Positions 27,312-63,498 of a stretch of 64,000 nucleotides of DNA are shown here, piece by piece. Source of the DNA: Acidobacteriota bacterium (lineage in GTDB: Bacteria; Acidobacteriota; UBA6911); the NCBI GenBank assembly GCA_963664705.1, contig OY761556.1:4480001-4544000 (forward strand). Reading direction: 5' to 3'. Numbering within the stretch: position 1 is the first letter of the stretch; each line of letters starts with the position of its first letter. The notes under the pieces are model-generated. The model worked only from the letters and a program-made list of their open reading frames with translations, was not told the DNA's origin and made no database searches. Position numbers and translations under genes: made by a program.

Positions 27312-27414
27312 GTGAACATATCCAAAGAAAGGGACATCATTTATGTCGGCTGGAGCATCAAAAGACTTGAATAGGAACCGGTATCACCGAATCATTTTTA
27401 ATACGAGGCCAATT

Positions 27415-28860
27415 ATGCAGAGACATTCATATTTTATTAGGGCATTTGTGCTGATTGTTTTGCCCTTCCTGCTCCTCCAGGCTCCGTCCTTTGCCGCATC
27501 CGGATTCCCCGGTGCGGAGGGTTTTGGAGCCAATACCATCGGGGGCCGTGGAGGACACGTTTACGAGGTAACATCGCTCAGCGACTCCGGCACGGGAAGC
27601 CTGCGCGAATGCGTGAATGCAAGCGGTCCGAGGATCTGCGTCTTCAGGGTCGGCGGACTCATCACTCTCAGCACACCACTCGTGATCAGCAACCCCTACA
27701 TTACCATTGCCGGCCAAACAGCACCTGGCGGGGGGATTACGCTCCGAAAGGCATCTGGAGGCGACGTGTTTTCCACCCGGACGCACGATGTAATCATGCG
27801 ATACCTTACCGTCAGACCCGGTCCCGGGGGCGAAAACCATGCGGATCAGATCGGAGTGAACAATGTTGCCCTCAATAACATCCTGATCGATCACTGCACT
27901 TTTAGCTGGGGTGTGGACTCAAATATTGAAACCTGGTATCGCGTCACCAACGCGACAATCCAATGGTCCATGATTTCCGAGGCGCTCGATTGCAGTACGC
28001 ATTCCAAAGGATGCCATAGCAAAGGCCTCATGATCGGTGGATTTGCCGGCAACGAGGCGGGGACAACCATGGGCGCGGAAAATGTATCGGTACTCCACAA
28101 TCTTATAGCCCATAGCGGAGAACGCACTCCACTGATGCAGCTTTGCGGTCCCGCCCAGGTTATCAACAATGTAACCTATAACCCGTACTGGGCTTTTGCC
28201 GAACAGCAGGACGACTGCGTTCTCCCCTCAAACAACACCATTAACTGGATCGGGAACTATAACAAGAAGGGACCCGACAGCACATCCAATAGCGGCCTTA
28301 TTGTCATTCCGGCAGATTCAGGAATCTATGCCGGCTACTCAAAAGCGTATGTTAAGGGGAATATCGGCCCCAGCCGACCGAATGACACGTATCCGGAAAG
28401 CAACTGGGTCGATTCCAGGTACCGAACATTCGTGGTGACCTCTCCCGTGGCCGCACCTTCGGTCACGACCACGGATGCCACAACCGCCTTTAACGATGTG
28501 CTGGCCGATGTCGGCAACAATCGTGGACTGACTTGCGATGGAGCATGGTTTAATCGGCGGGACTCCATAGATGCCCGAGTCGTAAACGATGTCAAGAACG
28601 GCACCGGCCACATTATTGACGATCCCGCCGAAGTCGGCGGCTGGATTACGCCGGCTCCGGGCACGCAATGCCAGGATTCCGACCATGACGGCATTCCCGA
28701 TGCCTGGGAATTACTGCATGGCCTTAATCCCGCAGATCAGTCCGATGCAGCCAAGGTAAATTCAAGCGGATATACCAATCTGGACGAATACCTGGCGGGA
28801 TCCGCTGTCATCAACACACTGGCAGCTCCCACCGGCCTGCATGTCGTGAATGTCAATTAA
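27415..28860 (+). CDS. Secreted pectate lyase family (PL1-like) protein with C-terminal DxDxDG Ca-binding motif
   Basis: FPGAEGFG…GGRGG, GTGSLR, TIAGQTAPG, IDHCTFSWGVD, RTP, DSDHDGIPDAWE, GYTNLDEYL. Confidence 0.88.
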   Translation: MQRHSYFIRAFVLIVLPFLLLQAPSFAASGFPGAEGFGANTIGGRGGHVYEVTSLSDSGTGSLRECVNASGPRICVFRVGGLITLSTPLVISNPYITIAGQTAPGGGITLRKASGGDVFSTRTHDVIMRYLTVRPGPGGENHADQIGVNNVALNNILIDHCTFSWGVDSNIETWYRVTNATIQWSMISEALDCSTHSKGCHSKGLMIGGFAGNEAGTTMGAENVSVLHNLIAHSGERTPLMQLCGPAQVINNVTYNPYWAFAEQQDDCVLPSNNTINWIGNYNKKGPDSTSNSGLIVIPADSGIYAGYSKAYVKGNIGPSRPNDTYPESNWVDSRYRTFVVTSPVAAPSVTTTDATTAFNDVLADVGNNRGLTCDGAWFNRRDSIDARVVNDVKNGTGHIIDDPAEVGGWITPAPGTQCQDSDHDGIPDAWELLHGLNPADQSDAAKVNSSGYTNLDEYLAGSAVINTLAAPTGLHVVNVN

Positions 28861-33695: not shown

Positions 33696-34922
33696 TCAAG
33701 CTATTGTCAAATCAGGCTTGAACCTGTCGCTTCGCAAAGGAAGAGGGTGTGAGCCCGGGGCCGGGAGTGGAGACCGTTTGTCGACCACATTCGCACTGAT
33801 GACAATCAGGCTCAGGAAAAGCCAGGTGGGTTTGGCAAACTCCCAGGTCAAAGTGCAACATCCAATGAGCCAAATCGCGAAAATCGTCATCCAGAGCCGG
33901 GACAGCCCCTTTGGCTGAGAAACAGCTTCCCGCATAACAACAACCAGCAAGTATCCATATATAAAAATGCCTACAAGCCCCAACTCCGCCGCAATGGAAA
34001 GGAAAGAGTTGTGCGCAGCGGCCCCGAGGATTGAAGAGTCCCGGAGCGCGCCACTGCCAATGCCGAGGAATGGATGCTCGACAAACAAATGCATGGCATC
34101 CATCCACACCTGCCGGCGCCCTCCGAAATCCAGGGCCGCAATTGATTTGGAGATGGTAGCCAGGCGTTCTATCTCGGCCTGAGGCGCATAGTAAAGAACA
34201 AGACCGGAGGCTCCCAGAAGAACAGCTATGATAAAAATGCGGGCGGACAGCTTTATCCTGGCGCTGGTACAAAGGACAAACAACACAAAAGGAATGACGG
34301 CCACGAGAAAGGTTCTGCTGGCCGTCAGGGTAATTGCAAAGAGAGACACCGGTATATAGGCATAGTTCAGCATCCACAAAATGCGACTGCCTCGCGCGTC
34401 GCCCAACGAGGTGACAAAATGCCACGCAATGGGCAGACCTATCGTCAGAATAATGGCGACCTCTACAGCATTGAGACCAACACCGGAGTATCGGTCGGTG
34501 GAATAGGGATCAATCTGCATGCCATTGATGTAATTGTAGATTGTTCCCCCGATGGTCAGATAAGCGCCCAGAATATATGCCTGCAATGCAGCCATCAAAG
34601 CCTTGCGCGTGGTATACAGGTCCCACAATATCCATGCCAGGAAGGCGAGTTGAACATAGGTCTTTATATGCAATAAGGTCCGGTCATCCGCCTGACTCCA
34701 GTACAGGCTGGCCGCATTCCAAAGCACGAATACGAACATGGCCAGATGAAAAGGATGTGCGCGGCAGATACGCGGCTTTACCACAAATGAGCCCAGCCAT
34801 GCCACTGCGGTAAGGATTCCAAGAAATCTGGACAGCGTCCCCAGATCCCCTATCGTGACCGCATTTTCCCAGGGGATGGTGAAGACAACCGCCAATGACA
34901 ACCAGAAGGCTATCGTTTTCAT
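33696..34922 (-). CDS. O-antigen ligase/Wzy-like polymerase
   Basis: Multi-TM; LTASRT, R..VW…F.EHPFLGIGSG, AHNSFL…AELGLVG. Confidence 0.88.
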   Translation of the reverse strand: MKTIAFWLSLAVVFTIPWENAVTIGDLGTLSRFLGILTAVAWLGSFVVKPRICRAHPFHLAMFVFVLWNAASLYWSQADDRTLLHIKTYVQLAFLAWILWDLYTTRKALMAALQAYILGAYLTIGGTIYNYINGMQIDPYSTDRYSGVGLNAVEVAIILTIGLPIAWHFVTSLGDARGSRILWMLNYAYIPVSLFAITLTASRTFLVAVIPFVLFVLCTSARIKLSARIFIIAVLLGASGLVLYYAPQAEIERLATISKSIAALDFGGRRQVWMDAMHLFVEHPFLGIGSGALRDSSILGAAAHNSFLSIAAELGLVGIFIYGYLLVVVMREAVSQPKGLSRLWMTIFAIWLIGCCTLTWEFAKPTWLFLSLIVISANVVDKRSPLPAPGSHPLPLRSDRFKPDLTIA

Positions 34923-36067: not shown

Positions 36068-37654
36068 TTACTCGATGGAAGTGACCAGCGCCATTTGAAC
36101 ACGTCGCCACACTTGCCTGCGCTGTTTCCGGGACAGACCCAGATAAAAGCCAAATATCAAGACAAGCCCAAATGTAGCTCCGACGCAGAAGCCAAGGCGG
36201 ATCCAACTGCCGATAATGCCGACAGGCCAATTTCGCAATACGAAAAGCGCGAGTCCAAAAATGATGCCTGTTGTCAAAGCAGGCCTTAATACCTCTTTAA
36301 GCTGCGCGGTCCATGAGATATTCAGCAATCGACTGATCAAAGCAGGGTAGCCCAGGCTGAGAATAAGTCGCCCGAAACAGAGCCCTAAACACAATCCCAT
36401 GATTCCCGCCTTGAAATATCCGACAAGCACGCCCGCGGCAAAGGCTGACAGAGCAGCCGAACACATTCCCATCAAAACCTTCCGTCGAAGGCAGAGCGTG
36501 AGGTCGATGATACTGGCGTCATTTCGGATCAAGACAAATTGAAAGGCCAATAAAGTGACCAGCAGAGTAGCCATGGGACCGACATAATGCTCCTTGCCGA
36601 CCCAAAACTGAATAAAGGGCCCATTCCATATCAGGACGGTGGTACCCAAAGAAGTTGCAAGAAGCCAGGTAAGCAGCATGATTTCTCCCCGAACTTGGAC
36701 GGCCTTCTCAAGCTTGCGCGAACCGATGATGCCTCCAAGTCCAGGGGTGATTCCAAATACCATAATCGCCACAAGCGTAATCAGCGTTTCCGGCGCATAT
36801 TTGGACAATGAATATTTCGTCACCGATTCAACCGAATCAAACATGCCAAGCACAATAACATCCGTTGCCAGCATGATATTCGTGAGCACATTCCAGCCCA
36901 TAAACCATCCGCCCAAACCCAGGAAACTTCTCACTTCCTTGAGCGATGGCATCGCCCATCCAAACCAGGGAGCCCATCTGCGCGCAACGTATAGAAAACC
37001 AAGCCCCGTCAATAAAACAGTACCCAGGGAAGCACCAGCCACGCCCAGGATTCCTATTTTGAAATATAGCGCCAGACAGGTGAGCCCGCCTCCGACAAGA
37101 ACAAATGCGGAGGACAGACACATACACTTGTAGCCAAGATTTTCTCCTTCCAGGGCCAGTTGGGGAATCATGGCAATATTGGAGGTGATCAATTGAATGA
37201 CCAGAATGGCGGAAGCCAGGCGCACATGCATGGCGAGCTTTGCCGGGGCATCTATCCAATCAGGCATATACCATGACAGAATGGCCCCGACGGCAGCAAT
37301 TATGGGCAAAAAAATGCCACAGACTGCCAGCGCACTACCGACGTGACGGCGTTTGACTTCAAAATCGGAGCAGGTTTGTTCGTGTGCAAGCGTGTACTTC
37401 AGGGCCTGGGTTGCGCCACCGCTTGCCGATGCAATTCCCGCGGTCCGCTGCAAAACCTGCCACGTACCGAAAAAGAAACTGCCCAAGCCAGCGACGAGCA
37501 GTGGGGTAATCACAAATCCGACAAAAAGCCGTGCCCCATAATCCACACCGGCCGCCAAGGTGCTGAGCGACGCCTTTTTGGTTAGCGTGTTATCCGCAAG
37601 GAATCTTGAAAACAGGCCATCCGTGCTTGTGCCCGAGTAACTCATCGGTATCAT
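36068..37654 (-). CDS. Wzx-like oligosaccharide flippase
   Basis: About 14 TM segments; ITPLLVAGLG…FGTW, TDVIVLG, FIQFWVG. Confidence 0.8.
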   Translation of the reverse strand: MIPMSYSGTSTDGLFSRFLADNTLTKKASLSTLAAGVDYGARLFVGFVITPLLVAGLGSFFFGTWQVLQRTAGIASASGGATQALKYTLAHEQTCSDFEVKRRHVGSALAVCGIFLPIIAAVGAILSWYMPDWIDAPAKLAMHVRLASAILVIQLITSNIAMIPQLALEGENLGYKCMCLSSAFVLVGGGLTCLALYFKIGILGVAGASLGTVLLTGLGFLYVARRWAPWFGWAMPSLKEVRSFLGLGGWFMGWNVLTNIMLATDVIVLGMFDSVESVTKYSLSKYAPETLITLVAIMVFGITPGLGGIIGSRKLEKAVQVRGEIMLLTWLLATSLGTTVLIWNGPFIQFWVGKEHYVGPMATLLVTLLAFQFVLIRNDASIIDLTLCLRRKVLMGMCSAALSAFAAGVLVGYFKAGIMGLCLGLCFGRLILSLGYPALISRLLNISWTAQLKEVLRPALTTGIIFGLALFVLRNWPVGIIGSWIRLGFCVGATFGLVLIFGFYLGLSRKQRRQVWRRVQMALVTSIE

Positions 37655-39764: not shown

Positions 39765-40334
39765 TTACCCCTCACCACCATTCAGTTTTTCCAGCCATTC
39801 CTCACGCCAGAAGAAATAGCAATTGCGGTCGCAGCGTCCATAGTGGGTTGTACCTCTGCAATTCAATCCTTCGAGCAGGAAGACGCCGTTGCATCTTTTG
39901 ACCTGATAGTCCCGTTCATCAACAAACCGCTCCATCCGCTTCAACACTCGCTGCGTAGTGCCGCAATAGGGTGACATTTCAATCGGCATGAACATGCATC
40001 CTTTGAGTATTCCCCACTCGTTGAGTGTGGCGCCAATTTCTTCCTTTGATTTCACGCGGACAAGGTCGCCGGCCTGCAGGGATGTTGATTCCCCAGGATG
40101 CGAGGCGACGACATCGTAGGGCCTTTCCCGAAGCACCCCGCGAAGTCTTTCGAACAGCATACTGCTGGAGGTTTTAAGTTTTCTGACCTGATCCGCCTTC
40201 ATGCTGCGCCGGATCAGGAGCCGCAATCGCCGGATAAAACCTTCTGGCGGTATCATGGCAAGCCCCTCGGAAATCTCCGGGATACTGGGCAACTGACAGT
40301 CTCCAGACGTAGTGGGCATCACGGTTCGCCTCAA
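39765..40334 (-). CDS. Hypothetical protein with Cys-rich SH3-like C-terminal domain
   Basis: [16 protein letters not shown]…G..F..EM..YCG…LEG..C.G…CDRNCY.FWRE.WL; start may be 40319. Confidence 0.7.
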
Positions 40335-42836: not shown

Positions 42837-43787
42837 TTAATTTTTGGCAGTCAACACCTGCCCAGGCGGATGAAGGCAAACGGGCCAGGCCTGCTGATCC
42901 AGCGGACGCTGTCCCTCCAGATAAAACCGAAGCATGCCAACCAGTTTGGGCAGGAACGAGTGTACAGACATACGGATTGAGAGCTTTTTGAGAACGCCCA
43001 CCAGGGCCGGCTGGACCATGGGCGCCAGCCAGGGATGCAACACAACGCGCTGACGCACCGGTCTGGCCACGTACCCCATCCTGAACTTGAACTCATCCAC
43101 ACTGGGAGAAGCATCCAGCGACTGAAAAGCGTAAAACAGCAAAGAGATCCCGGGCCGGTTCACCATTGTTTGCGTTACCACGAATGTAAGCGCGTTATTC
43201 ACACGTTTTCCCAGGTATTCGTGATGGCATTGCTGCGACAGAAACTCGCAGCAGTCCCCCATTTGAAAGGTCAATAACGATGCCACCAGCCTTTCTTCCG
43301 CTATTGCTCCCCAGGCCTCAAATCCCGGGAGCCTGGCTGCCAGATTGCACCTCCGGTGCCACCTGGATTCGTCGAGATCGAGCTTTCGGCTCTGCCGATC
43401 CACAGTGTCTTTCTCAAGTGCCCAGCCCTCTTCCGCCAATCGTCGAAGGCTGATCGGCTCTACCCTGCAGTTATTCAAACCGGTTCGCACATTTTGGCGG
43501 CTGCGCCGGTCAAGAATCTCCAGGCTATATTTGGCCGCCTGATAAACGGCATGGTAGCTGATGCAACCCAGCGGGCTCTCGAGAGGTGCGGAATAGCGCA
43601 ACGCGAGCGCGCGGCTTTTCACGAGGATCTTTCCCAGTTCCTGCTCGGAGGGCTGTACAAGCCAGTGATAGGGAAAGGCCTGGTAAGCCCCGAACCCGGC
43701 GTCAAACCAGAAACTGCTGTGAGTCCGCAGTACCCGGTGGCCCTGGCATCTCAGCCATTCGGCAAAGACTTCAGCGTCCATATGCAC
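42837..43787 (-). CDS. Hypothetical protein, probable FemAB/GNAT-like fold
   Basis: L.RRSRQNVRTGL, WGA…LVA, NNAL.F, SVDEFKFRMGY resemble the tandem-GNAT FemAB/BioF2 pattern. Confidence 0.55.
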   Translation of the reverse strand: MHMDAEVFAEWLRCQGHRVLRTHSSFWFDAGFGAYQAFPYHWLVQPSEQELGKILVKSRALALRYSAPLESPLGCISYHAVYQAAKYSLEILDRRSRQNVRTGLNNCRVEPISLRRLAEEGWALEKDTVDRQSRKLDLDESRWHRRCNLAARLPGFEAWGAIAEERLVASLLTFQMGDCCEFLSQQCHHEYLGKRVNNALTFVVTQTMVNRPGISLLFYAFQSLDASPSVDEFKFRMGYVARPVRQRVVLHPWLAPMVQPALVGVLKKLSIRMSVHSFLPKLVGMLRFYLEGQRPLDQQAWPVCLHPPGQVLTAKN

Positions 43788-43856: not shown

Positions 43857-45962
43857 TCATTGGCTATTCCGCAGAGAAGAACCTGCGAGTTTTAGGGACC
43901 TTGGCTGGCCATACGCCATCTGCAGATCATGGAGATGTCCGGAGTTTCCTGAATACGTCAATAAGTCACAGCGAGTCACCTCTTGGGTGTGAATCCGGCT
44001 ATCTTCAGGCACATACAGGTGCACTTGACTGGGGACGGGCCATTGGTATCCCTTGATCTGGAATGGCTGGGCCATAAGCGTCCGGGCGCGCCGGAGCACG
44101 GTCTCAGCCGCCAGATCGTCCCCCAAGTCGTCGAAAAGCAAAGCAAACTCGCAGTTGCCGGTATAGGACAAAGTGTCGCTTTCTCTCGTGCAGCCTGCCA
44201 GCCGCCTGGCCACCTGTCCCAATAATTCCTGTGAGGCATGAATCCGGTTCCCGTCCACCAGGCGGCTGGAGTCCTCCAGATCGATGGTCAGCAGCGCCGG
44301 CGTTGTGTGATAGCGCCTGGCGCAGGCCAATGAATGCTGCAACCGCTCTCGAAGAAGCGTCCCGTTGGGCAACCCTGTCAGCAGATCGTGCTGCGGCAGT
44401 GAATCCACACGATGCTGCGACCACTCGAGATACTGAATGGACTCCGTGGGACGATTTTCATTCCCATAGGCCAAAAGGTCGTCCAGAAAGACAGCCTTGA
44501 TTCCGGCTCTGTCCATGAGCTCAAAGATTGCCTCTTCAAGGCCCTTCAGTACATTGGGAACCGTGTATACGATCAGTCGGACATCATGTTCCTTGATAAG
44601 CAAAGGAAGATCTCCAATCCCGCCCAACACCCGGCTGCCATGCAACTGCATGCCTTGATTGGTCGGGTCTTCCGTTGCAACGATTCCCACAATAGAAAAG
44701 GCATGACGGAAGATGTCGCGCCGGAGGAGCCAGTTGGCGACCTGAGAGGCTTCGCCATCGCCCACAATCAGGACACGCTCTCCCATCCCTCGCCTTTTTC
44801 CCGACGCCGTCATCCGACCCTGCGTAATCCATGTCAGAAGCCGGAATCGATAACGCACAAAAATAAACCCGCTCTGCGCCAACAGGCCGGTACAGAGAAT
44901 CATCCCAAATGGAAGAGGCGGGAATGCAAACCACTGGAAACTGGATTGCGCCTCATTGAGAGACAGGGCGATCAGAGTCCCTGCCCCCGCGGTAAAAAAC
45001 AAGCCAACCGCGTCTTCGGCATTGGCTCTGGACCAGATAATGCGATGCAATCCGGCCAGGTAATTGAATGCGCTGAAAATGAAAGCCAGGCAGAAGGCGA
45101 AGAGGACCACATACTTCTCCCCCCAGTTCAGAGGCCCCTGGATGCGCCAGATAAGCGTGGAAGCGGATACGGCGGCAAAAGAGCAGCAAAAATCGCATAC
45201 CAGCCAGGAAGCATAACGGTGGACGATGCGAGACAACGGCCCCGCAAACAGGTAACCCTCCGGAATTCTCACCGGGCAAAGGCGCGGAGTGAGAATCGAC
45301 AGTGTCCACAGAATGGTATCCAGGTCCGAGGTAAAAGACCGGTTGCGAACATAAAGCTGGTCCAGGCGCAGCTTGTCGGGAAGGATGTCTTTGATATATT
45401 TCCCGGTTAGATTATCGCTGGTCAGTAAATCCTCTTCACTGTGATAGAGAACGCTTGCCGGACTGGTGATCCCCGGCCTCATCGAAAGGATCTCGCGGCG
45501 AATGGAGGAAGGATAGGAATCGATGAAAACAGGGTCTTCCGGGCGAGGCCCGACAAGGCTCATGTCGCCCACAAGCACATTCCATAACTGCGGCAGTTCA
45601 TTTATTTTCGTATCTCGCAACCAGCGTCCCAGCCGGGTGATGCGCGGATCGTCCTTCGCAGTAAGCCTTGGACCGCTGTGAGTTTCGGGACGTTCATACA
45701 TGGTCCGGAACTTGAGAATCTGGAAAAGCTGCCCTCCTTTGCCCACACGAGGGCCGCGGTAAAAAACCGGACCGGGAGATTCCCGCACCACCAGCAGGCC
45801 AATGATCAACAGGAACGGGCTAAGCAAAATAAGGCCTGCCAATGAAAGCAATACGTCAAAAACCCTTTTTACCGCCTCACTCAGAGTTGAGCGAAGGGAG
45901 CAGGTATCACCCTCCTTTTGAAAACAGCCTGCCGCGAATTCGACCTGTCGCAAATCAATCAC
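43857..45962 (-). CDS. Priming phosphoglycosyl transferase (Bac_transf) fused to a TM bundle, a Rossmann/CoA-binding-like domain and a degenerate GGDEF domain
   Basis: KRVFD, KFRTM, DPRIT.LGRWLR.TKINELPQL.NV..GDMSLVGPRP, PGITS; RVLIVGDGEAS; HDLLTGLPN…RESDTLSYTGNCEF; GTG at 45962 follows the upstream stop (TTG at 46016 is an alternative). Confidence 0.85.
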   Translation of the reverse strand: MIDLRQVEFAAGCFQKEGDTCSLRSTLSEAVKRVFDVLLSLAGLILLSPFLLIIGLLVVRESPGPVFYRGPRVGKGGQLFQILKFRTMYERPETHSGPRLTAKDDPRITRLGRWLRDTKINELPQLWNVLVGDMSLVGPRPEDPVFIDSYPSSIRREILSMRPGITSPASVLYHSEEDLLTSDNLTGKYIKDILPDKLRLDQLYVRNRSFTSDLDTILWTLSILTPRLCPVRIPEGYLFAGPLSRIVHRYASWLVCDFCCSFAAVSASTLIWRIQGPLNWGEKYVVLFAFCLAFIFSAFNYLAGLHRIIWSRANAEDAVGLFFTAGAGTLIALSLNEAQSSFQWFAFPPLPFGMILCTGLLAQSGFIFVRYRFRLLTWITQGRMTASGKRRGMGERVLIVGDGEASQVANWLLRRDIFRHAFSIVGIVATEDPTNQGMQLHGSRVLGGIGDLPLLIKEHDVRLIVYTVPNVLKGLEEAIFELMDRAGIKAVFLDDLLAYGNENRPTESIQYLEWSQHRVDSLPQHDLLTGLPNGTLLRERLQHSLACARRYHTTPALLTIDLEDSSRLVDGNRIHASQELLGQVARRLAGCTRESDTLSYTGNCEFALLFDDLGDDLAAETVLRRARTLMAQPFQIKGYQWPVPSQVHLYVPEDSRIHTQEVTRCDLLTYSGNSGHLHDLQMAYGQPRSLKLAGSSLRNSQ

Positions 45963-45963
45963 T

Positions 45964-47127
45964 TTATTTGCCTTCAGCTCCCAATGCCTGGCGGATGATG
46001 GAACAGATGCCTTCAACAGCCTCTCGCGTCAGACCGGGGAACAAAGGAAGGGTGATCGCGCGCTGAGAAAAGGCAACACTCTTGGGCAGATCCTCGCCCC
46101 GAAAGGCTTCGAAGGCTTTAAACCAGGGGATATAAGGGTAATGCAGGCTGGTTTGAATCCTTGCGTCCCTGAGCGCGTGAACAACGCTATTCCGGCAGGT
46201 TGCATCAGGCGCCACCAGAACCGCAAGATGGCAGGCGCTGTCGCCCGAATAGTCGGAGAAAGCAAACCGGCAGCCGGCGATCTGATCCAATTCGTTCCTG
46301 TAGATCAGGGAGAGATCGCTGCGGCGGCGGTTGTTCCCATCAAGCTTTTCCAACTGCGCCCGACCCAGCGCAGCGTGTATCTCATCCAACCGATAGTTGT
46401 AACCGTTGGCAGTCACATCATAGCTGTACGCGTGCCCTCGATGTCGATCCCAGGAGAGAGAGGTCATGCCGTGAGAGCGAAGCTTGCGAACGGAATCTGC
46501 CAGATCCTCACGATCAGTTGTGATCATCCCTCCCTCTCCAACCGCGAGGTTCTTATTGCTGAAGAAGGAAAAACAGCCAATGTCACCAATCCGGCCAGCC
46601 ATTCTGCCGTTCGCCTTTCCTGCCGTGCACGCATAATGCGCTCCCACGGCATGGCAGGAGTCTTCCACCAGTGCAAGCTTATGCTCGCTGCAAATATCCA
46701 GGATCTCGCCCATTCTCGTCAGATAGCCGCCATAGTGCATGACAATGACGGCCCTGGTTCGCGGCGTTATCCGCAGCCGGATCTGTTCCGGATCGATCGT
46801 CGGTTCCGCAATCCCAACAATATCTCCAAACACCGGCACACACCCCGCCGCGAGGGTCATATTCGCAGCCGCTACAAAGTTGATTGCCGGTTGAATCACC
46901 TCATCCTGTCGGTTGAGACCCAGCGCAACCAGGGCAAGGTGCAGAGCGGCCGTCCCGTTTGCAACAGCAATGGCATATTTCGCACCGATCCGTGATGCAA
47001 ATTCATGCTCAAATGCCTCTACCTCCGATCCCATGGAAAGCCATCTGCTGTCGAGGACACGAAGCACCGCATCTCTTTCAGCATCGCCGTAGTCCAGATC
47101 ACTTAGTGGTATGCGCCATTCAGACAA
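45964..47127 (-). CDS. DegT/DnrJ/EryC1/StrS family PLP aminotransferase
   Basis: ANGTAALHL, EDSCHAVG, FSFFSNKNLAVGEGG, GYNYRLDE; TTG start with GAGGA RBS. Confidence 0.93.
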   Translation of the reverse strand: MSEWRIPLSDLDYGDAERDAVLRVLDSRWLSMGSEVEAFEHEFASRIGAKYAIAVANGTAALHLALVALGLNRQDEVIQPAINFVAAANMTLAAGCVPVFGDIVGIAEPTIDPEQIRLRITPRTRAVIVMHYGGYLTRMGEILDICSEHKLALVEDSCHAVGAHYACTAGKANGRMAGRIGDIGCFSFFSNKNLAVGEGGMITTDREDLADSVRKLRSHGMTSLSWDRHRGHAYSYDVTANGYNYRLDEIHAALGRAQLEKLDGNNRRRSDLSLIYRNELDQIAGCRFAFSDYSGDSACHLAVLVAPDATCRNSVVHALRDARIQTSLHYPYIPWFKAFEAFRGEDLPKSVAFSQRAITLPLFPGLTREAVEGICSIIRQALGAEGK

Positions 47128-47905
47128 GTATGAAATCCTCCTTTTTCTCCGCATAGATCTCCTGGGCACGCGCATAATCGTCAGGACGGCCGATATCGAG
47201 CCAGAGGCAATCGCTCGGATAGGCGCAGACGCGTTCCCCGTGTTTGAGCAGCTTTATCACAAGGTCGGGAAAGTCCAGATAGCAGCCGGGCTCGATATAA
47301 CGAATCACTTCGGGCTCATAGACATAAATGCCCATACTGACGTTATAGCTGCTCTTCGGTTTTTCCAGATACCGTGCCACGGTAAAACCACCGTCGAACT
47401 CCAATACGCCAAGATCGATTTTTACTTCCCGCTTCTGCACGCCGATCGTTAACATTGCGCGTTGGTCCCGGTGAAAACTGACCAATTCGTGGATATTCAT
47501 GTTTGTCAGAAGATCGCCATTGAGCGCGAGGAATGTTTCATGCAGCGCAGGGATGGAAGCAAGCGATCCGGCGGTACCGGTCGGTTCATGTTCTTCAACA
47601 TAGTGCAAGGTACACCGTTCGGTCAGCGATCGACGGTGTTGCATGTAGGCCTTTATCAGCTCAGCCAAATGGCCAAGAGTGAGCGTAATATCGGTGATGC
47701 CATGCTGAACCAGGCGATAAATCAGCACTTCCAGAACGGGAATGTCGCCCAGCGGAACAAGAGGCTTGGGGAAACTGGCAGTGTACGGAGCCAGGCGGGT
47801 GCCTTTGCCGCCGGCAAGAATCACCGCACGCATTCCAGTCGCCGCACCGGAGGGCGATACTTTGCCATTCCCGGGGATTGTACTTTGTAGCGCGGTTGCA
47901 TTCAT
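47120..47905 (-). CDS. Sugar-phosphate nucleotidyltransferase
   Basis: AVILAGGKGTRL.PYT..FPKPL, E.EPTGTAG, NGDLL, WLDIGRPDDY; GGAGG RBS. Confidence 0.92.
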   Translation of the reverse strand: MNATALQSTIPGNGKVSPSGAATGMRAVILAGGKGTRLAPYTASFPKPLVPLGDIPVLEVLIYRLVQHGITDITLTLGHLAELIKAYMQHRRSLTERCTLHYVEEHEPTGTAGSLASIPALHETFLALNGDLLTNMNIHELVSFHRDQRAMLTIGVQKREVKIDLGVLEFDGGFTVARYLEKPKSSYNVSMGIYVYEPEVIRYIEPGCYLDFPDLVIKLLKHGERVCAYPSDCLWLDIGRPDDYARAQEIYAEKKEDFILV

Positions 47906-47969
47906 GCGGTCCTCCCCTACGGTCTTATCAATTTGGGTCACAATCGCTTTCGTCAAACAGACTGCCGCC

Positions 47970-48713
47970 TCACAACCGGCGATAGAGCGCTTCGGGAATC
48001 GGGTATGCCCGCTGAGTGAGAACGGCTCCGAGAATTCGTATATTCAGGGCATCCAGATCCTGCCGCGCTTTTAGCGCGGCCGCGCGGCGCGTGGAGTTTG
48101 CGGCAATGACCAGGACAACACCATCCGCAATCCGGCCAAGCACCAGGGCTTCCGCCAGCTCATTCACCGGGGGAGCATTGAAGAGAACGTATTTGAATTG
48201 TGCGGTCAATTCCGAAAGGCGTTCTTTCAGGTGCACCGGGCTGGCGGGCACCGAATCCGAAACCGGCGGCCTTAAATCGCCGGATAGAAGCCACAGGTTG
48301 TTGCCGCGAATCAAATGGGCACCGTTTTTTGCGCCGCAGTGAGTTGTTGCAGGATTTTCGTGGCTGTCCGCGAAACTCTCTCCGAAATAATGGTCGAGTG
48401 CGGGAGAAACAGGATCCCCATTGATAAGGCAGATTTTGTCTTCGACCTGGCCGGCCAGCAACTCTCCCACCTGTGCGCATATCACGCTGCTGCAGGCATT
48501 GTGATCGACCGGGCAGAAAACAACGACATGAGGAGCGGACGAGCCTCCAAGCAGAAACAGGCGGGCTATCAATTTCAGTATTTCCGGTTGTCCGTGCCCG
48601 TTTCCATTGTGGTGCTCCGGAGCATATCCGGCCGAGCACTCCGCTGGCGATTCATGCCGGAACAGTTCAACATCTCTCCTGACCGCACGCAAAAGCTCAT
48701 AGTTTTTGCTCAT
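47970..48713 (-). CDS. CpsD/CapB (BY-kinase) family protein with degenerate Walker motifs
   Basis: Recognisable C-half (L..L..QF.YVLFNAPPV…ADGVVLVI.AN.TRR…ILGAVL…YPIP..LY); Walker A, A' and B all substituted. Confidence 0.8.
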   Translation of the reverse strand: MSKNYELLRAVRRDVELFRHESPAECSAGYAPEHHNGNGHGQPEILKLIARLFLLGGSSAPHVVVFCPVDHNACSSVICAQVGELLAGQVEDKICLINGDPVSPALDHYFGESFADSHENPATTHCGAKNGAHLIRGNNLWLLSGDLRPPVSDSVPASPVHLKERLSELTAQFKYVLFNAPPVNELAEALVLGRIADGVVLVIAANSTRRAAALKARQDLDALNIRILGAVLTQRAYPIPEALYRRL

Positions 48714-50119
48714 TGTTTACTCCCGGGTTGAGCTTGTTTCTGGAGATAGACCCCTGATCCCGAGACCGGGATGCTCAATGCAGAGGTTGATTCGCCTTGC
48801 CGCAAAGGCAGACGGAGTTCCTGACCCTCCCAGATTTCGTCCGGTGTGACGATCTGGGGATTCAGAACCAGGATTTCCTTTAAAAGATTTGGGTCCAGCC
48901 TGCGCCCCAGGTATTTTTTTGCGATTGAACCCAAAGCCTCTCCCTTCTGCACAGTCACCGAAAAGTCAGGGGCAGGACTGGAAGCCGTAGCGCTCACGGC
49001 TACCGGTACAGGCTGGGGAGCAGTCTTTGGCTCGAACAGGAAGTAGCCCGCGCTCACCAACGCCAAGGCCATGGCCAAGCCGATGCCGGCTCGATAAGGA
49101 TGACGCAGCAGGCGGGGCTTTGCGCAAAACAGGTTAATCCGCAGTCTGTCAAAGGAACAATCTGTGCCTGTTTCCTCGAGGTTGGTCCGGAGCGCCTCAC
49201 CGCAAGCCTGTTTTTCTGAAGCAAAAACCGGCTGTCTCTCGGAAAGAATCGGCTTTGAAGCCACCGGCTCCTCCGGGCTCAAAGCATCGGCGCTCCGGTG
49301 GTGAGGGAAGGGCAAGCTGAGGCGCATATCGGAAATGGTTTCCTGCATCATCGAGGCATCCACCCTTTTCGCCTGTCGGGCACAAGCCAGCGAAAGCGAA
49401 TTGAAGCATAAGCAGTTGATGAGGCGCGGAATCCCTTCCGAAGCTTCGGTGAGTTGCTCCAGGGCACCGGACCTGAACAGGAATGGGCCGCGATACCCGG
49501 ATATGCAAAGCCTGTGTTCAATGTACTCTCTGATTTCGGCCGGGTTCAGAGGAGACAACCTCGCCGCTGCGGATATCCGTTGTCGAAACTGTGCCAGATT
49601 GGATCGCTTCAGTTTCTCCTCGAGCTGGCTCTGGCCGGAAAGCAGGATCTGAATGATTTTGTGGTCCGGTCTTTCGAAATTGGAAAGGAGCCGCAATGTT
49701 TCCAGCGTTGCAGGGGTCAGATTCTGCGCCTCATCTATAACTAACACGAGCTGCTTTCCGGTCTGCGCAAACCCGGTCAGAATCTCGTTGACCTTTAAAT
49801 GCAATTCGGCCAGGTCGTGGGTATCTGTTCTATAGCCAAGATCCGCCAATAAAAAGCGAAGCAGTTCCCCCGGACCATAGCGGGTCTGAAACAGAAAAGC
49901 CGTCTGATAATCGGGCCGGAGGTTTTCCAGCAACTGAAACGCGAGGGTCGTTTTGCCGAAACCCGGCGGAGCAATCAGCGCAATGAATCCCCTTTCCGTT
50001 TTGATGCCATAGTAGAGAGTGGCCAGGGCCTCCCGGTGGGAACGGCTCCAATAAAGGTATTTCGGATCCGGGGTCGTTCCAAACGGTTGCTCTCTGAAAC
50101 CAAAAAAGCTCAAGAACAT
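48710..50119 (-). CDS. ExeA-family AAA ATPase with TM segment and C-terminal LysM domain
   Basis: F.SFFGF.EQPF..TPDP, PGFGKT, VIDEAQNL, LRLLSN.E, GIPRLIN; VTVQKGEALGSIA…NP.I…I.EGQELRLP. Confidence 0.9.
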   Translation of the reverse strand: MFLSFFGFREQPFGTTPDPKYLYWSRSHREALATLYYGIKTERGFIALIAPPGFGKTTLAFQLLENLRPDYQTAFLFQTRYGPGELLRFLLADLGYRTDTHDLAELHLKVNEILTGFAQTGKQLVLVIDEAQNLTPATLETLRLLSNFERPDHKIIQILLSGQSQLEEKLKRSNLAQFRQRISAAARLSPLNPAEIREYIEHRLCISGYRGPFLFRSGALEQLTEASEGIPRLINCLCFNSLSLACARQAKRVDASMMQETISDMRLSLPFPHHRSADALSPEEPVASKPILSERQPVFASEKQACGEALRTNLEETGTDCSFDRLRINLFCAKPRLLRHPYRAGIGLAMALALVSAGYFLFEPKTAPQPVPVAVSATASSPAPDFSVTVQKGEALGSIAKKYLGRRLDPNLLKEILVLNPQIVTPDEIWEGQELRLPLRQGESTSALSIPVSGSGVYLQKQAQPGSKQ

Positions 50120-50145
50120 AGGCGCACAATAGGTGGCAAAAACTG

Positions 50146-51735
50146 CTATCTGGGAAGGGAGGCAAGTACGGGAACGCCCAGAAGAGCTTCGACTTCATCG
50201 GCCGTTCTGAGCGAAGGATCGATATGGTCGGCGGCAAAAGCCAGACCAATGCTGCCGGCAAACGCCAGCAGCACTCCCAGAACCAAGAACAGGAAGCGGC
50301 TGGGACCGGACGGAAAAGCCGGAAGAGTTGCAGCCTCCGCAATGGTTGCGTTGACAATTCGCTTGTGGTCCAGGGCATCCGAGATTCTCGCCTCTTCCTC
50401 TTTCCTGGAATATAGAAGGTAGTTTTCCTCTGCGCTTTTTGACGCCCGGACCAGATCCTGGTATTCGATGCCTTTCCGGCCGATCTGTTGGGCATTCTGT
50501 CTGCCGGCGTTGATGCTGCCCGCAAGAGATTCCATTTTGGCCCTCAGGGTAGCCCGTTCAGCCTGAGCTTTGGCCAGCTCTTCATCCAGCCATAATCGGG
50601 TCCTGTCAAGATCGGTTGTCTCATCAACCAGTGATTTTGTTTCCGCATTGCGGATCGCTTCGCGCGTCAGTGTAATCTGATCATCCGCCTCCACGACCAG
50701 CCGGTAGCCCGGTTCAAATTTTGTGAGCAGTTCGGTTCGCTTCATTTCAAGGGTCAACAGCGTTGTCCGGAGTTGTTGTACCAGAGATGAGTTAGGAGAG
50801 GTCCTTACCTGAGTAGTGACGCGCAACGGAGTAGCCGCTGCCTGCGTTTGAAGCGCCTTTATTCGCTTATCCAGTGACGCTTCAGCAGCCCGCGCCTCCT
50901 GCAATTCGGTTTCAAGGCTATTCAACGCGCGCAATGCGTTATCCTTTTCCAAATCCAGCGAAACGATTCCCTCCTTTTTTCCAAAAGCCGCCAGCTGCGC
51001 CTCTGCTATTTCCAACTCGCTCCGGTATTGCTTTGCCTGCTGCTGGAAAAACTCCAAAGCACCCGGAGGTCGGTGCACGGAGAGATGCTTCTCAAGATAC
51101 AAGCCGGCCAGGGTTCTCAAAACAAACATGGATCGCCGCGGGTCGGTTGCCCGGTAGCGCACGTCAATCAAGTGTGACTTGCTGATCGGCTCGACGGTGA
51201 GATTCTGTGCCAGGTCGCGCACGGCCTCGGGGACGCGCATATCTCGCGAATCTCCGTCATTTTCTCCGGGCATCCATCTCGTCAAGCCGGCAGGGAGAGA
51301 AAACCCGCCTGGAAGCCTGTGCAGCCCGCATGTAATGACGACCTTCTCAAGAAGATCGCTGCTTTTAAGCAACTCAACTTCTGAATTGAGATCCTCCTGC
51401 GTAACATCCGAAAGGCTGAGGTCGCGCACATTCGCGCCAGGGGCGAGCACCATATTTGCCCGTTCATGCTTCACCAGGATCTTCATGTCGGACTCGTACT
51501 GTCTTGGCATAAGGAACGTCACGAGGCAAATAATGGCCAATATGAAAGAAAACGACAGGACAACCAGCCGCAGATGGCGAAACAAAACAGCGAGCAAGTC
51601 GCGCATCGTGACCGGTCGCGTTCTGAAATCCGACGGAATGCCCGGAATGCGCCCGCCAGGCAATGGCATCCCCTCATATTGATTGGCTTGAACAGCCGTA
51701 CCGTGAATCGATGGCCGAGAGATCGATTCTTCCAT
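50146..51735 (-). CDS. GumC/Wzc-N polysaccharide chain-length determinant (co-polymerase), no fused kinase
   Basis: RDLLAVLFRH plus TM, SEVELLKS, long coiled coil, TM2, DPSLRT.DEVE..LGVPVLASLP. Confidence 0.88.
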   Translation of the reverse strand: MEESISRPSIHGTAVQANQYEGMPLPGGRIPGIPSDFRTRPVTMRDLLAVLFRHLRLVVLSFSFILAIICLVTFLMPRQYESDMKILVKHERANMVLAPGANVRDLSLSDVTQEDLNSEVELLKSSDLLEKVVITCGLHRLPGGFSLPAGLTRWMPGENDGDSRDMRVPEAVRDLAQNLTVEPISKSHLIDVRYRATDPRRSMFVLRTLAGLYLEKHLSVHRPPGALEFFQQQAKQYRSELEIAEAQLAAFGKKEGIVSLDLEKDNALRALNSLETELQEARAAEASLDKRIKALQTQAAATPLRVTTQVRTSPNSSLVQQLRTTLLTLEMKRTELLTKFEPGYRLVVEADDQITLTREAIRNAETKSLVDETTDLDRTRLWLDEELAKAQAERATLRAKMESLAGSINAGRQNAQQIGRKGIEYQDLVRASKSAEENYLLYSRKEEEARISDALDHKRIVNATIAEAATLPAFPSGPSRFLFLVLGVLLAFAGSIGLAFAADHIDPSLRTADEVEALLGVPVLASLPR

Positions 51736-51805
51736 AAGTTTCTCCTTGGGTGTTATCCGTTAGGCAATGAAGGCGGCTGGAGGAGACAATAGCCGGGCAG
51801 CCAAC

Positions 51806-52498
51806 TCAACGAGGCAAATAGGAGCCAATGGACATCGACGGAATAAATCGCTGTATCTTGGAGATGGTGTTTTGCGGTATGTAAATCATATCGCCGGGAC
51901 GAAGGTGCACATCTTCCTTTAAATTCCCTGAAGTCAGCATAGCTTTCACATCCAACAGTTTCTGTTCAGTCCATTCATCCGAAATCCGGTGCCAAAGAAG
52001 AACCTGGGAGTGCCGGGAGCTTTCCTTGAAACCGCCGGCTATCTGGACTGCCTGAGTCACGGTTGTATCGCCGCGAAGATCATACTTTCCCGGACGGCCC
52101 ACTTCCCCGCCGGCAATGAAGTAGGGCTTCTCAAAATCCTTGAGCTGAACAGTTACAACAGGATCATGAAGAATACCGGAATAGAGCTTTTTTAGCGCTT
52201 CCGTCAATTCCGGCGTGGTCTTCCCTGCAGCGCGCAAATCCGGCAACTCACGAAGATTTATAAAGCCATCCGGCTGGATTGTTACGGCCTGATTGAACTC
52301 CGGCGTAAGCCGGAAGGTAATCTCGATGGCATCCCCGATCTGCAGCCTATATCGCATATCATGCGGCCAGAGGACGGGCTCAGCAGCTTTTGAGGATTGC
52401 TCCTGTGCCAGGCTCCTTCCCGTCGGCAGAGAACAAGCCAGGAGGAAAAGAAACACAAGCCCGACGGTTGTTGGAACTTTTTTGAGTTTCATGAGCAA
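51806..52498 (-). CDS. Polysaccharide biosynthesis/export protein (Wza-like; Poly_export plus SLBB)
   Basis: YRLQIGD…TIQPDGFINL…AAGKT, GGEVGRPGKY, AGGF, LRPGDMIYIP. Confidence 0.9.
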   Translation of the reverse strand: MLMKLKKVPTTVGLVFLFLLACSLPTGRSLAQEQSSKAAEPVLWPHDMRYRLQIGDAIEITFRLTPEFNQAVTIQPDGFINLRELPDLRAAGKTTPELTEALKKLYSGILHDPVVTVQLKDFEKPYFIAGGEVGRPGKYDLRGDTTVTQAVQIAGGFKESSRHSQVLLWHRISDEWTEQKLLDVKAMLTSGNLKEDVHLRPGDMIYIPQNTISKIQRFIPSMSIGSYLPR

Positions 52499-62668: not shown

Positions 62669-63498
62669 TTACGCCGCCTGCTTTTCTTCGCGGACGGTTT
62701 CAAAATAAACCGCATCAGGAGTCTTGCCGTCAAGTGATTGATGCGGTCGTTTGCCGTTGTAAAACTCCAGATACACTTTCAAACGTTCTTTGGCTTCATT
62801 CATCGAGCCATAAGCATAAAGATATATGTGTTCATATTTGACAGTGCGCCAGAGCCGTTCGACAAAAACGTTATCGCGCCAGCAGCCTTTGCCAGCCATG
62901 CTGATTTGAATTCCATTCGCTTTGAGAATGCCTGTGAACTCGGCACTGGTGAACTGGCAGCCCTGGTCCGTGTTGAAGATATCAGGACAGCCATAAAGAG
63001 CTATAGCCTCCTCCAGTGCTTCTATACAGAAGTCCGTCGTAAGCGTGTTGGAAAGTCGCCAGGAAAGAACGCGGCGGGAGTACCGGTCCTGGACGACAAA
63101 CAGATAAACAAAGCCTCGACGCATCGGAATATACGTGATGTCTGCCGACCAAGCTTGATCGGGTCGAACAACCTTCAAATCCCGCAGGAGATAGGGATAG
63201 ATATGGTGCCCGGCCTGCCTACGGCTGTATTGGGTTTTCGATACAAAACATCGATCCCCATTTTTCTCATCAACGTTCGGACATGCCGACGGCCGACCTT
63301 GTAGCTGTCCTGCCTCAATAAATCTCGCATCATCTGGCTCCCGGCAAAAGGCCATTGAAGATGCAGCTCGTCGATTCGCTTCATCAGCTCAAGGTCTGAC
63401 TGGGGAACCTCCACGGGTCTGTAATAGGCCGTCGATCGCGGCAGTTTCAGCAACGTGCATTGTCGTTTTATGGAGATCTTGGCCTTGCGGTCGATCAT
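62669..63498 (-). pseudogene. IS3 transposase OrfB (DDE integrase core) with a 1-bp frameshift near 63227
   Basis: MIDR…RSTAYY…RIDELHL.WPFAGS…RKPNT then, in another frame, SRRQAGHHIYPYLLR…WSADITY…NTDQGCQFTS…DNVFVERLWRTVKYE. Confidence 0.85.

Follow-up and report, generated by a model that had tools for sequence, protein, structure and literature searches.

A putative c-di-GMP receptor domain fused to an Asn-Glu phosphoglycosyl transferase in a Wzx/Wzy polysaccharide locus

Introduction

PssE, YdaK and PopA are degenerate-GGDEF receptors that use the I-site. PelD, another receptor of this kind, is membrane-linked and belongs to a polysaccharide locus; its A-site is dead, whereas its I-site is intact (PMC3838380, in excerpt). 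The post-translational control of Wzx/Wzy pathways, on the other hand, is described as incompletely understood in the excerpted text of a 2025 paper on EpsZ, where c-di-GMP is named mainly for synthase systems (PMC12802240). The same excerpt proposes that EpsZ is controlled through promotion of a dimer of its hairpin-less DUF. As for catalysis, every monotopic phosphoglycosyl transferase (monoPGT) is said to carry an Asp-Glu dyad and to form a covalent intermediate (PMC10519829); both features are likewise presented as universal in the excerpt of PMC12802240.

Here we describe a gene from an Acidobacteriota genome (GCA_963664705.1) whose product combines these themes: like PelD, it appears membrane-linked and is encoded in a polysaccharide locus, and its GGDEF domain has lost the A-site but kept the I-site. 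The gene lies in a stretch of 64,000 nucleotides (hereafter, the window), for which an earlier note had suggested that c-di-GMP may directly gate the first committed step of a Wzx/Wzy-dependent polysaccharide.

Results

The features discussed below are collected in Table 1.

Table 1. Positions, within the window, of the fusion gene, its domains and motifs, and its neighbors
Feature	Position	Strand	Remarks
PGT(Asn-Glu)-4TM-DUF-degenerate GGDEF fusion gene	43857..45962	(-)	701 aa
Monotopic PGT domain, residues 32-223	45294..45869	(-)	
Four-helix membrane bundle, residues ~242-371	44850..45239	(-)	Shares homology with the N-terminal bundle of PglF/CapD and large PGTs
Rossmann-like DUF, residues ~394-501	44460..44783	(-)	CoA_binding_3 in relatives
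Degenerate GGDEF domain, residues 524-664	43971..44393	(-)	Pfam, alignment, fold search
Catalytic dyad position, Asn121-Glu122 instead of Asp-Glu	45597..45602	(-)	Ungapped alignment to WbaP Asp-Glu
Dead A-site, GNCEF	44145..44159	(-)	
Primary I-site, R593-E-S-D596	44175..44186	(-)	RESD starts at residue 593
Secondary I-site, Arg550, with family-specific Tyr551	44310..44315	(-)	Same offset as R115 of the T. maritima DGC and R163 of DgcR
Arg625	44088..44090	(-)	Position of YfiN N351 / PleD R390
DegT/PseC-like aminotransferase	45964..47175	(-)	Cassette member traveling with Asn-Glu PGTs
Nucleotidyltransferase	47120..47956	(-)	Cassette member; best NCBIfam match mannose-1-P guanylyltransferase, below cut-off
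GNAT-like protein	42837..43787	(-)	Acetyltransf_6 in 3/9 aligned members; frequent neighbor of the fusion
Export/chain-length genes: CapB/BY-kinase-like, ExeA-type ATPase-LysM, Wzz co-polymerase, Wza	47970..52498	(-)	
Likely Wzx flippase	36068..37654	(-)	No Pfam match; language-model look-alikes (0.99-1.00) carry Polysacc_synt/MatE
Wzy_C-family polymerase/ligase	33696..34922	(-)	Pfam

The fusion ORF opens with a GTG directly after the stop codon of the upstream DegT gene. Pfam recognized Bac_transf at residues 32-223 (E 5e-55, 186 bits) and GGDEF at residues 524-647 (E 1.6e-12, over the cut-off). CoA_binding_3, the third family for which the earlier note had recommended a scan, was matched in the middle region of relatives; the same region of the window copy (TM plus DUF) has no Pfam match. 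An AlphaFold2 model of the 701-residue protein (mean pLDDT 84.7, pTM 0.71) resembled both WbaP (Z 21.4, rmsd 2.6, 164 aligned) and PglC (Z 18.9, rmsd 3.0, 177 aligned). It also matched GGDEF domains, among them PA0575 (Z 18.1, rmsd 2.0, 138 aligned), so that Pfam and structure agree on the GGDEF fold anticipated for the C-terminus. This fold search bore mainly on the PGT and GGDEF parts. The modeled DUF consists of five strands followed by helices, without a C-terminal beta-hairpin.

The PGT-4TM-DUF-GGDEF architecture is common to 119 other proteins, making a family of at least 120, whose named members belong to Anaerolineae/Chloroflexota. Since, in addition, contigs from two public runs of one sample (possibly the assembly's own source) cover the whole gene with zero differences, the fusion is not a misassembly, a concern that the earlier note had raised along with the call for an architecture search. 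A second sample contained the gene region in short pieces only. An atlas search with the full protein returned matches all below 0.9, to be taken as leads only.

HMMs built from the TM and DUF parts of the family match PGT-PglF fusions. The unusual domain order had been noticed before, and the PGT-first arrangement with a CapD-like bundle is indeed there; however, the protein is not a permuted WcaJ, its order being explained by a PGT-PglF fusion as the ancestor, from which the dehydratase was lost. It falls outside the PGT-PglF group proper, because GGDEF replaces the C-terminal Polysacc_synt_2 (relatives with the SDR exist), and outside the large monoPGTs (WbaP/WcaJ), because its order is PGT-4TM-DUF; the NCBIfam scores for WcaJ, WbaP and EPS_sugtrans were all under the cut-off.

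The locus has the makeup of a Wzx/Wzy pathway, with Wza, Wzz, Wzy_C and GT4 proteins recognized by Pfam/NCBIfam and Wzx by language-model look-alikes only. Besides the fusion, the window encodes no PGT, and the three other monoPGTs and three polytopic-family matches of the genome all lie elsewhere, which bears out the description of the fusion as the sole recognizable initiating sugar transferase of the locus. In the Wza/Wzz loci of G000, G028 and G033 the fusion is the sole PGT observed, and of 24 long Asn-Glu loci just 2 include an Asp-Glu PGT. Priming could nonetheless come from elsewhere, because each of the six genomes checked has 3-7 further matches to PGT families; almost all of these are Asp-Glu, and one, in G000, is a large PGT that appears to be an orphan.

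Among 24 Asn-Glu loci, 17 have the nucleotidyltransferase and 16 a LegB-like dehydratase, as opposed to none of the 68 Asp-Glu loci, the members of these sets being kin rather than independent. The LegB-like gene is absent from the window locus, the nearest one being at genome position 3302184 (54%). The nucleotidyltransferase was matched in 5 of 301 genomes of the window's phylum and, at 1e-50, in no plasmid. The cassette does not imply a PGT, since none was nearby in the four other loci retrieved (three outside loci and the genome's second copy). For the GNAT-like neighbor, no PDB match was found.

When the GGDEF domain was aligned with YfiN/TpbB, no gaps were needed: RESD fell over RESD and GNCEF over GGDEF, and the DxDxFKxxND motif was lost. 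The replacement of GG(D/E)EF by GNCEF, the loss of FKxxND and the canonical RESD/GNCEF spacing (44186-44145) had all been read correctly in the earlier note. An intact GG[DE]EF occurs in 0/120 members, which does not fit an active diguanylate cyclase. What the domain shares with PelD-type receptors is the GGDEF fold with a dead A-site, a conserved RxxD nine residues ahead of the A-site motif, and a second cross-linking Arg. Conservation of RxxD in homologs, on which the earlier proposal depended, amounts to 110/120, and the motif recurs in 22/22 fused GGDEFs of distant representatives that cover the site, the A-site being kept in none. R550 is found in 117/120 and R625 in 105/120; the combination of R550, R593 and D596 with Arg or Lys at 625 is present in 109/120, and in 35 of the 39 sequences less than 60% identical. 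The spacing from R550 to the I-site Arg is 43 residues, as for R115 of the T. maritima DGC and R163 of DgcR, and a structural alignment to 4urs gives a matching offset.

By itself, RxxD is weak evidence, and we rejected it as such, because 20 of the 21 nearest active GGDEFs carry it and because YfiN has RxxD and yet does not bind c-di-GMP (PMC3838380, in excerpt). All three residues of the RxxD plus R550 set are present in 17 of these 21, and on this sequence comparison RxxD and R550 are ancestral. More telling is the pattern of change: the A-site positions have decayed to a mean conservation of 0.37, versus near invariance in the 21 active neighbors, while several positions of the I-site face outdo those neighbors (S595, 90% vs 6/21; E611, 90% vs 9/21).

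A homodimer predicted for residues 505-660, with c-di-GMP riding along, scored 0.70 (best control, 0.01); of the solved pairs, 20 of 30 attained the mark used for this score, as did 1 of 23 single chains. In the model R550 touches R593', the runs agree on at least 48% of contacts and the partner pLDDT is at least 76. This pass may reproduce known structures, since similar complexes have already been solved, and is not independent of the conservation test, since both were built on one alignment.

The PGT domain has the Bac_transf/PglC fold, the DX12P motif and the substrate-orienting Lys/Arg/Arg of monotopic PGTs but not their Asp-Glu dyad, a departure that the first reading of the sequence had overlooked. 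The dyad is Asn-Glu in 120/120 family members, and a second search gave Asn in 117/120 matches. In monoPGTs the dyad Asp is the nucleophile, and Asp-to-Asn replacement usually kills such enzymes. The window copy otherwise keeps K84 (PglC K59; 118/120 in the family), R116 (R88; 120/120), E122 (E94), R140 (R111/112; 120/120), D36/P49 (DX12P; 118/120) and D213 (D168; 118-120 of 120). The PGT is also the best-conserved domain, with a mean identity of 69% vs 44-53% for the others. Apart from an enriched D143, Asn is the only clean separator of the clade from its Asp-type relatives, and a compensating new catalytic residue was sought and, D143 excepted, not found.

In a PGT tree of 142 sequences, Asn-Glu proteins form four separate groups. 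Independent origins of the substitution were considered and set aside: a single Asn-Glu clade is not rejected (AU p=0.21), and we therefore claim no convergence. In a second, Desulfomonile-like Asn-Glu group, the fused dehydratase is also degenerate in 3 of 4 Asn-Glu representatives with an SDR, vs 3 of 24 Asp-Glu ones. We found no paper on Asp-to-Asn monoPGT mutants in a literature search whose scope stopped short of O'Toole 2021 (BST), Das 2017, Ray 2018 and Lukose 2015.

The fused GGDEFs split into two lineages (25/31 and 6/31), a single clade being rejected (AU p=0.027). A separate subfamily of 20 proteins, 20/20 Asn-Glu, carries an N-terminal PilZ domain, with the RxxxR and (D/N)xSxxG motifs found by script in 17/20; two members are N-truncated. 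Judging from these trees and motifs, the PGT core has gained c-di-GMP-type modules in three ways, i.e., as two GGDEF lineages and as an N-terminal PilZ. One relative, P0166, has a fused REC domain. Most Asn-Glu core copies have no signaling module, and the absence of GGDEF from 11 of 12 Chloroflexota copies implies an independent function for the core. A search for longer fused forms (1228-3505 aa), a weak test, yielded 21 matches, only ordinary PAS-GGDEF-EAL-type signaling proteins. Neither the fusion nor the PilZ-PGT was found described in the literature covered, which did not include the superfamily fusion survey of O'Toole 2021 (PNAS). GGDEF fusions, PGTs without the dyad or the Asn mutant may already appear in that survey and the four papers named above, or in their supplements.

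Discussion

Of the original proposal, the receptor part has gained strength from R550, R625, the I-site face and the three-way recruitment of modules. The priming-enzyme part has become uncertain, because of the invariant Asn and of the other PGT-family matches in each genome checked.

In the mechanism that we tentatively put forward, c-di-GMP would bind the I-site as a dimer, gluing GGDEF domains back to back, a step that we regard as very probable. The cross-link may stabilize the PGT as a dimer, its DUF having no dimer hairpin of the WbaP kind, with an effect like that proposed for EpsW~P on EpsZ, and joining two copies would probably switch on the Asn-Glu PGT domain. Activation is favored only because c-di-GMP usually promotes EPS. 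The PGT would still move a 4-amino-6-deoxy-sugar phosphate onto undecaprenyl phosphate, for which we see slightly better than even chances; in place of Asp, the chemistry might involve direct displacement or Glu122 as the nucleophile. The donor is possibly GDP-linked, supplied by the linked nucleotidyltransferase/LegB-like dehydratase/DegT cassette. Taken as a whole, a c-di-GMP cross-link that switches an unusual, possibly GDP-sugar-using priming enzyme seems to us a little short of an even bet. The fullest version, i.e., an active monoPGT class lacking the catalytic aspartate, using a GDP-linked amino sugar, with c-di-GMP sensors recruited three times and representing the first Wzx/Wzy priming enzyme gated directly by c-di-GMP through ligand-induced dimerization, is rather unlikely to be right in every part.

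The most serious rival, unlikely on balance but weighty, is that the Asn-Glu domain binds NDP-sugar, Mg or Und-P with no turnover. The protein would then be a c-di-GMP-responsive membrane scaffold or regulatory subunit, with a PelD/PssE-like logic, acting in trans on an Asp-Glu PGT or other pathway enzymes, e.g., as heterodimers through the 4TM-DUF part. The prevalence of Asn in both searches (120/120 and 117/120), the further PGTs in every genome checked and the parallel decay of the fused dehydratase among the Desulfomonile-like proteins all fit such a regulator, as does the repeated fusion to signaling modules (GGDEF, PilZ, REC). But 22 of 24 long loci contain no Asp-Glu PGT, most copies have no signaling module, all the other active-site residues are invariant, and a dedicated amino-sugar cassette took the place of PglF beside the Asn-Glu PGT.

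A less probable alternative is that c-di-GMP binds but inhibits the enzyme, or shifts its location or partners, as I-site cross-linking immobilizes cyclases. PleD, DgcR and the T. maritima DGC are all inhibited by this same cross-link, and the excerpt of PMC5362036 discusses a switch-off role for HfsK when c-di-GMP peaks. Against inhibition, the dimer hairpin of WbaP is missing from the modeled DUF, and EpsZ, likewise hairpin-less, is proposed to be activated through promotion of its dimer (PMC12802240, in excerpt). Similarly improbable is a GGDEF domain serving for nucleotide-independent dimerization or docking, its RxxD inherited and lying by chance on a conserved face. The ancestral RxxD, its retention in the nonbinding YfiN (PMC3838380, in excerpt) and its loss in 10/120 members are compatible with this, and the family-specific Y551, S595 and E611 suggest a protein-protein face; yet every arginine known to be needed is kept, and a second GGDEF lineage and the unrelated PilZ fold, motifs intact, joined the same core. 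Finally, an assembly artefact or a decaying pseudogene is highly improbable in view of the matching contigs, the 119 other full-length homologs and the strong, selective conservation, even though the fusion is in frameshifted pieces in two of the three relatives carrying it (G028 and G033).

With a priming domain and a predicted c-di-GMP pocket on one polypeptide, it becomes possible to test whether the first step that commits Und-P is gated directly, and that c-di-GMP modules were recruited repeatedly indicates that the link is under selection. A large natural Asn-Glu clade is at odds with the published statement that the dyad of every monoPGT is Asp-Glu; it is either a catalytic route of a new kind, perhaps drawing on a non-UDP donor, or a pseudoenzyme of wide occurrence. 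Either way, it affects how polysaccharide loci are annotated in uncultured bacteria of sludge and sediment, Chloroflexota among them.

Compared with PelD, which serves a synthase, the GGDEF domain described here sits in cis on a monoPGT, within a Wzx/Wzy locus for lipid-linked repeat units, and its second Arg is predicted to come from the partner GGDEF rather than from a GAF domain. The holdfast is itself the product of a Wzx/Wzy pathway. Since Caulobacter HfsK is a c-di-GMP effector acting on the holdfast polysaccharide, c-di-GMP control in such pathways is not unprecedented; HfsK, however, is presented as a GNAT acyltransferase without GGDEF that affects cohesion and not priming (PMC5362036, in excerpt). 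With Myxococcus EpsZ-EpsW the fusion shares the post-translational control of an initiating large monoPGT in a Wzx/Wzy pathway, but there the signal comes from a phosphorylated response regulator that is a protein of its own, and the active site of EpsZ is canonical, its domains following the order 4TM-DUF-PGT (PMC12802240, in excerpt). WbaP/WcaJ and PglC have the same catalytic fold, and the 4TM plus nucleotide-binding DUF module also occurs among them (PMC10942596 and PMC10186338, in excerpt), whereas the fusion is PGT-first and Asn-Glu, with a DUF hairpin-less in the model and an extra GGDEF. The bifunctional PGT-PglF/CapD fusions (L020, P0211, P0212 and others) have the same PGT-4TM-DUF order and are the nearest Asp-Glu relatives in the PGT tree; here, the C-terminal UDP-GlcNAc dehydratase of those fusions is missing or has GGDEF/REC in its place, and genes for a LegB-like dehydratase and a nucleotidyltransferase lie alongside.

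Gene, domains and genomic setting

Pfam placed a Bac_transf domain at residues 32–223 of the fusion protein and a GGDEF domain at residues 524–647. An AlphaFold2 model (120-sequence alignment, pLDDT 84.7) predicted, in order, a PGT fold, four long helices (242–371), a five-stranded Rossmann-like domain (DUF, 395–492), two linker helices and a GGDEF fold. By structural alignment the model matched WbaP (Z 21.4), PglC (Z 18.9) and GGDEF domains (Z about 15–18), bearing out the C-terminal GGDEF fold proposed in an earlier note. RESD (residues 593–596) and GNCEF (602–606) lay where that note had placed them, and aligned ungapped with the RESD and GGDEF of YfiN. The fusion is real: the gene is spanned without differences by contigs of two runs from a single sample, which may be the source, and this argues against misassembly.

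The operon-like run also encodes Wza, Wzz, an ExeA-type ATPase, a BY-kinase-like protein, GT4s, Gmd, a Wzy_C protein and a likely Wzx. No other mono- or polytopic PGT was found in the window, consistent with the claim that the fusion is the sole initiating sugar transferase of the EPS locus. Fifteen further GGDEF proteins, mostly with intact cyclase active sites (A-sites), are encoded in the genome, so c-di-GMP signalling is available. Tandem CarboxypepD/OMP_b-brl_4 receptors are present in the window as well and would fit an Acidobacteriota origin. The GNAT-like protein and the Cys-containing one, the latter without a family match, are frequent companions of the fusion (40–63% identity in other loci). 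The CapB/BY-kinase-like protein is possibly degenerate; tyrosine-autokinase models matched it weakly (42 bits vs a cut-off of 108).

Features in the window and in other sequences (window positions unless another sequence is named)
Feature	Position	Strand	Remarks
Fusion gene	43857-45962	(-)	701 aa
GNAT-like protein	42837-43787		316 aa
Cys-containing protein	39765-40334		189 aa
CapB/BY-kinase-like protein	47970-48713
FN3-repeat gene and pectate-lyase-like gene	26430-28860	(+)	opposite strand within the polysaccharide locus
rve integrase, IS-type	62669-63355	(-)	close to window end
Polytopic PGT-family domain (PF00953) with PglF-like dehydratase	G000:C1:5488881-5491892		1004 aa; genome of the window
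Small stand-alone Asn-Glu PGTs	L045:9989-14921
Asn-Glu PGT fused to degenerate PglF dehydratase	L034:6035-8572		Desulfomonile

Distribution

The architecture recurs elsewhere, by the kind of search suggested in the earlier note: PF02397 and PF00990 occurred together in 120/120 of the best-listed homologs (best 120 of 7628 matches; 7999 scored), three of which were organism-named, from Chloroflexi/Anaerolineae. Only three of 60 relatives of the host genome carried the fusion, broken into pieces by frameshifts in two of the three, and the PGT-4TM-DUF core was present in 12 of 301 Chloroflexota genomes (three candidates scored per genome), with a GGDEF domain on one of the 12. The family is patchily spread. 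Further PGT-GGDEF architectures possibly exist in Bac_transf atlas clusters, commonest in Pseudomonadota and Planctomycetota, where 10–17% of members carry GGDEF (scores under 0.9, leads only). A similar tail of ~45 residues, probably helical and without a Pfam match, ends many GGDEF-less members (P0161, P0163, P0167, P0172, P0174, P0177, P0178, P0180, P0182, P0191).

A-site loss and I-site retention

By itself, RxxD is weak evidence for c-di-GMP binding, because YfiN carries it yet, for lack of further arginines, does not bind (PMC3838380), and it is shared by 20 of the 21 closest active GGDEF controls. What is informative is which residues were retained while the A-site decayed. GG[DE]EF was intact in none of the 120 family members, and mean A-site conservation was 0.37 (39 non-redundant members) vs near invariance in active controls. 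R593xxD596, the I-site motif, was retained in 110/120, as its expected conservation in homologs demanded, and R550 in 117/120. R550 precedes the I-site Arg by 43 residues, an offset that agrees with structural alignment and resembles the spacing of secondary-site R115 in the T. maritima cyclase and R163 in DgcR (PMC4215984; bioRxiv 2020.08.28.271692). Position 625 (N351 in YfiN, R390 in PleD) is Arg in 105/120, position 547 (R313 in PleD) is not Arg in the fusion, and R550, R593 and D596 were jointly present with Arg or Lys at 625 in 109/120.

When residues 505–660 were modelled as a dimer with c-di-GMP, the predicted score was 0.70 vs 0.01 for the best control, with R550 against R593'. The mark used was reached by 20/30 solved pairs and 1/23 single chains; here, contact agreement was at least 48% and pLDDT at least 76. 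Since similar complexes are already solved, the predicted dimer shows likeness, not binding. Mean conservation was 0.77 at polar interface positions (n=13) vs 0.46 at other polar positions (n=51), in the same alignment as the dimer model and with no tree correction. The fusion has a dead A-site and, by prediction, an I-site c-di-GMP pocket.

Repeated gain of c-di-GMP-type modules

Of the best 150 matches in an HMM search over 1.84 billion representatives, 23 had a fused GGDEF domain; 22 covered the site, all with RxxD and none with an intact A-site. A tree was built from 31 fused domains and 34 controls (those under 90 residues left out); 25 fused domains fell within GGDEF-EAL-type domains and six within other cyclases, and a single clade was rejected (AU p=0.027, vs a FastTree-constrained tree that may be suboptimal). 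PilZ at the N-terminus (P0183) and REC at the C-terminus (P0166) also occur on the core, as does an N-terminal GT2 in P0160 (with GGDEF too) and P0367. The PilZ-PGT(Asn-Glu)-4TM-DUF subfamily comprises 20 proteins (P0183, P0303-P0321). Both PilZ c-di-GMP motifs were found by script in 17; two others are truncated, and one, with a longer N-terminus, has the motif by eye. Through PilZ, c-di-GMP would reach this core independently of GGDEF. The best argument for the messenger acting on the fusion protein is that c-di-GMP-type modules were recruited three times.

The Asn-Glu dyad

Overlooked by the earlier note, the PGT dyad is Asn121-Glu122 in 120/120 homologs, aligned ungapped with the Asp-Glu of WbaP. 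Das reportedly identified the dyad Asp as the nucleophile of monoPGTs in 2017. The Asp-Glu dyad and covalent intermediate are described as common to all monoPGTs (PMC10519829; PMC12802240; PMC10186338). Asn in place of the catalytic Asp could mark a pseudo-enzyme, a reading also favoured by 3–7 other PGT-family matches in each of six genomes, an apparently orphan large PGT elsewhere in the host genome and dehydratase decay in the Desulfomonile-like Asn-Glu group. For activity speak the fusion's position as sole PGT in three Wza/Wzz loci, the absence of Asp-Glu PGTs from 22/24 long loci, the absence of any signalling module from most copies of the core, and an otherwise invariant active site, its remaining residues all retained in the family. 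We lean slightly towards a catalytically active PGT. It is the most conserved domain of the fusion (69% vs 44–53% for the others). P0185, a fused member nested within the Asn-Glu clade, has regained Asp, with other changes in the active-site region.

Asn-Glu also occurs in Desulfomonile-like and Bacteroidota-containing groups of the PGT tree, and a single origin was not rejected by the tree test. In a clade (support 1.0) of small stand-alone Asn-Glu PGTs (loci L045, L025, L156, L191, L192, L196), the Arg conserved in KFRTM is replaced by Ala. Two of these PGTs lie in L045, which shows no Asp-Glu PGT in 20 kb; like L025, it carries DUF218 and DegT genes along with a weak Polysacc_synt_2 gene. 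The Desulfomonile PGT-PglF fusion (L034, L220) neighbours GlmS-like, phosphoglucomutase, nucleotidyltransferase and LegB-like genes, and its genome holds a second Asn-Glu PGT.

Ancestry and sugar donor

The closest Asp-Glu relatives of the fusion PGT were PGT-4TM-DUF-PglF fusions, and the 4TM-DUF regions of large PGTs and PglF are known homologs (PMC10942596); the fusion would therefore most simply be a PGT-PglF fusion that lost its dehydratase and gained GGDEF afterwards. The domain order earlier called unusual stands, with this ancestry as its likely origin.

We compared 160 loci, kin and pattern-selected, two of which look duplicated; 100 were at least 8 kb (24 Asn-Glu 4TM, 68 Asp-Glu, 8 other Asn-Glu). 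Of the 24 Asn-Glu 4TM loci, 17 had a nucleotidyltransferase and 16 a LegB-like dehydratase (about 400–424 bits, cut-off 475), vs 0/68 Asp-Glu loci; three of the eight others had the pair. The LegB-like gene adjoins the core in 11/12 sampled Chloroflexota copies. LegB acts on GDP-GlcNAc, and the pattern suggests a GDP-linked 4-amino-sugar donor route for Asn-Glu PGTs. Two observations speak against this route: no LegB-like gene lies in the window locus, and the cassette is also seen where there is no PGT. A second nucleotidyltransferase-DegT pair in the host genome adjoins, by eye, apparent nonulosonate and flagellar-motor genes. Donors noted from a superfamily screen were all UDP-sugars, 'GDP' being absent from its text (PMC11626204).

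Comparison with known systems

None of the parts is new by itself: I-site receptors and regulated PGTs are known, as is HfsK, which serves holdfast synthesis as a c-di-GMP effector (PMC5362036). MonoPGTs fused to receiver domains are also cited as known (PMC12802240). In the literature covered, which excluded the main superfamily survey, neither PGTs fused to GGDEF or PilZ nor Asn-Glu PGTs turned up.

The modelled DUF of the fusion has no hairpin, and two helices lead on into GGDEF. By cross-linking the GGDEF domains of two copies, c-di-GMP would supply the dimer contact that such a DUF lacks, and this contact would switch the priming step, in a direction at which we can only guess. The fusion would differ in this from WbaP, a dimer held via its DUF beta-hairpin, and resemble the equally hairpin-less EpsZ, whose activation is proposed to proceed through a dimer promoted by EpsW~P (PMC12802240).
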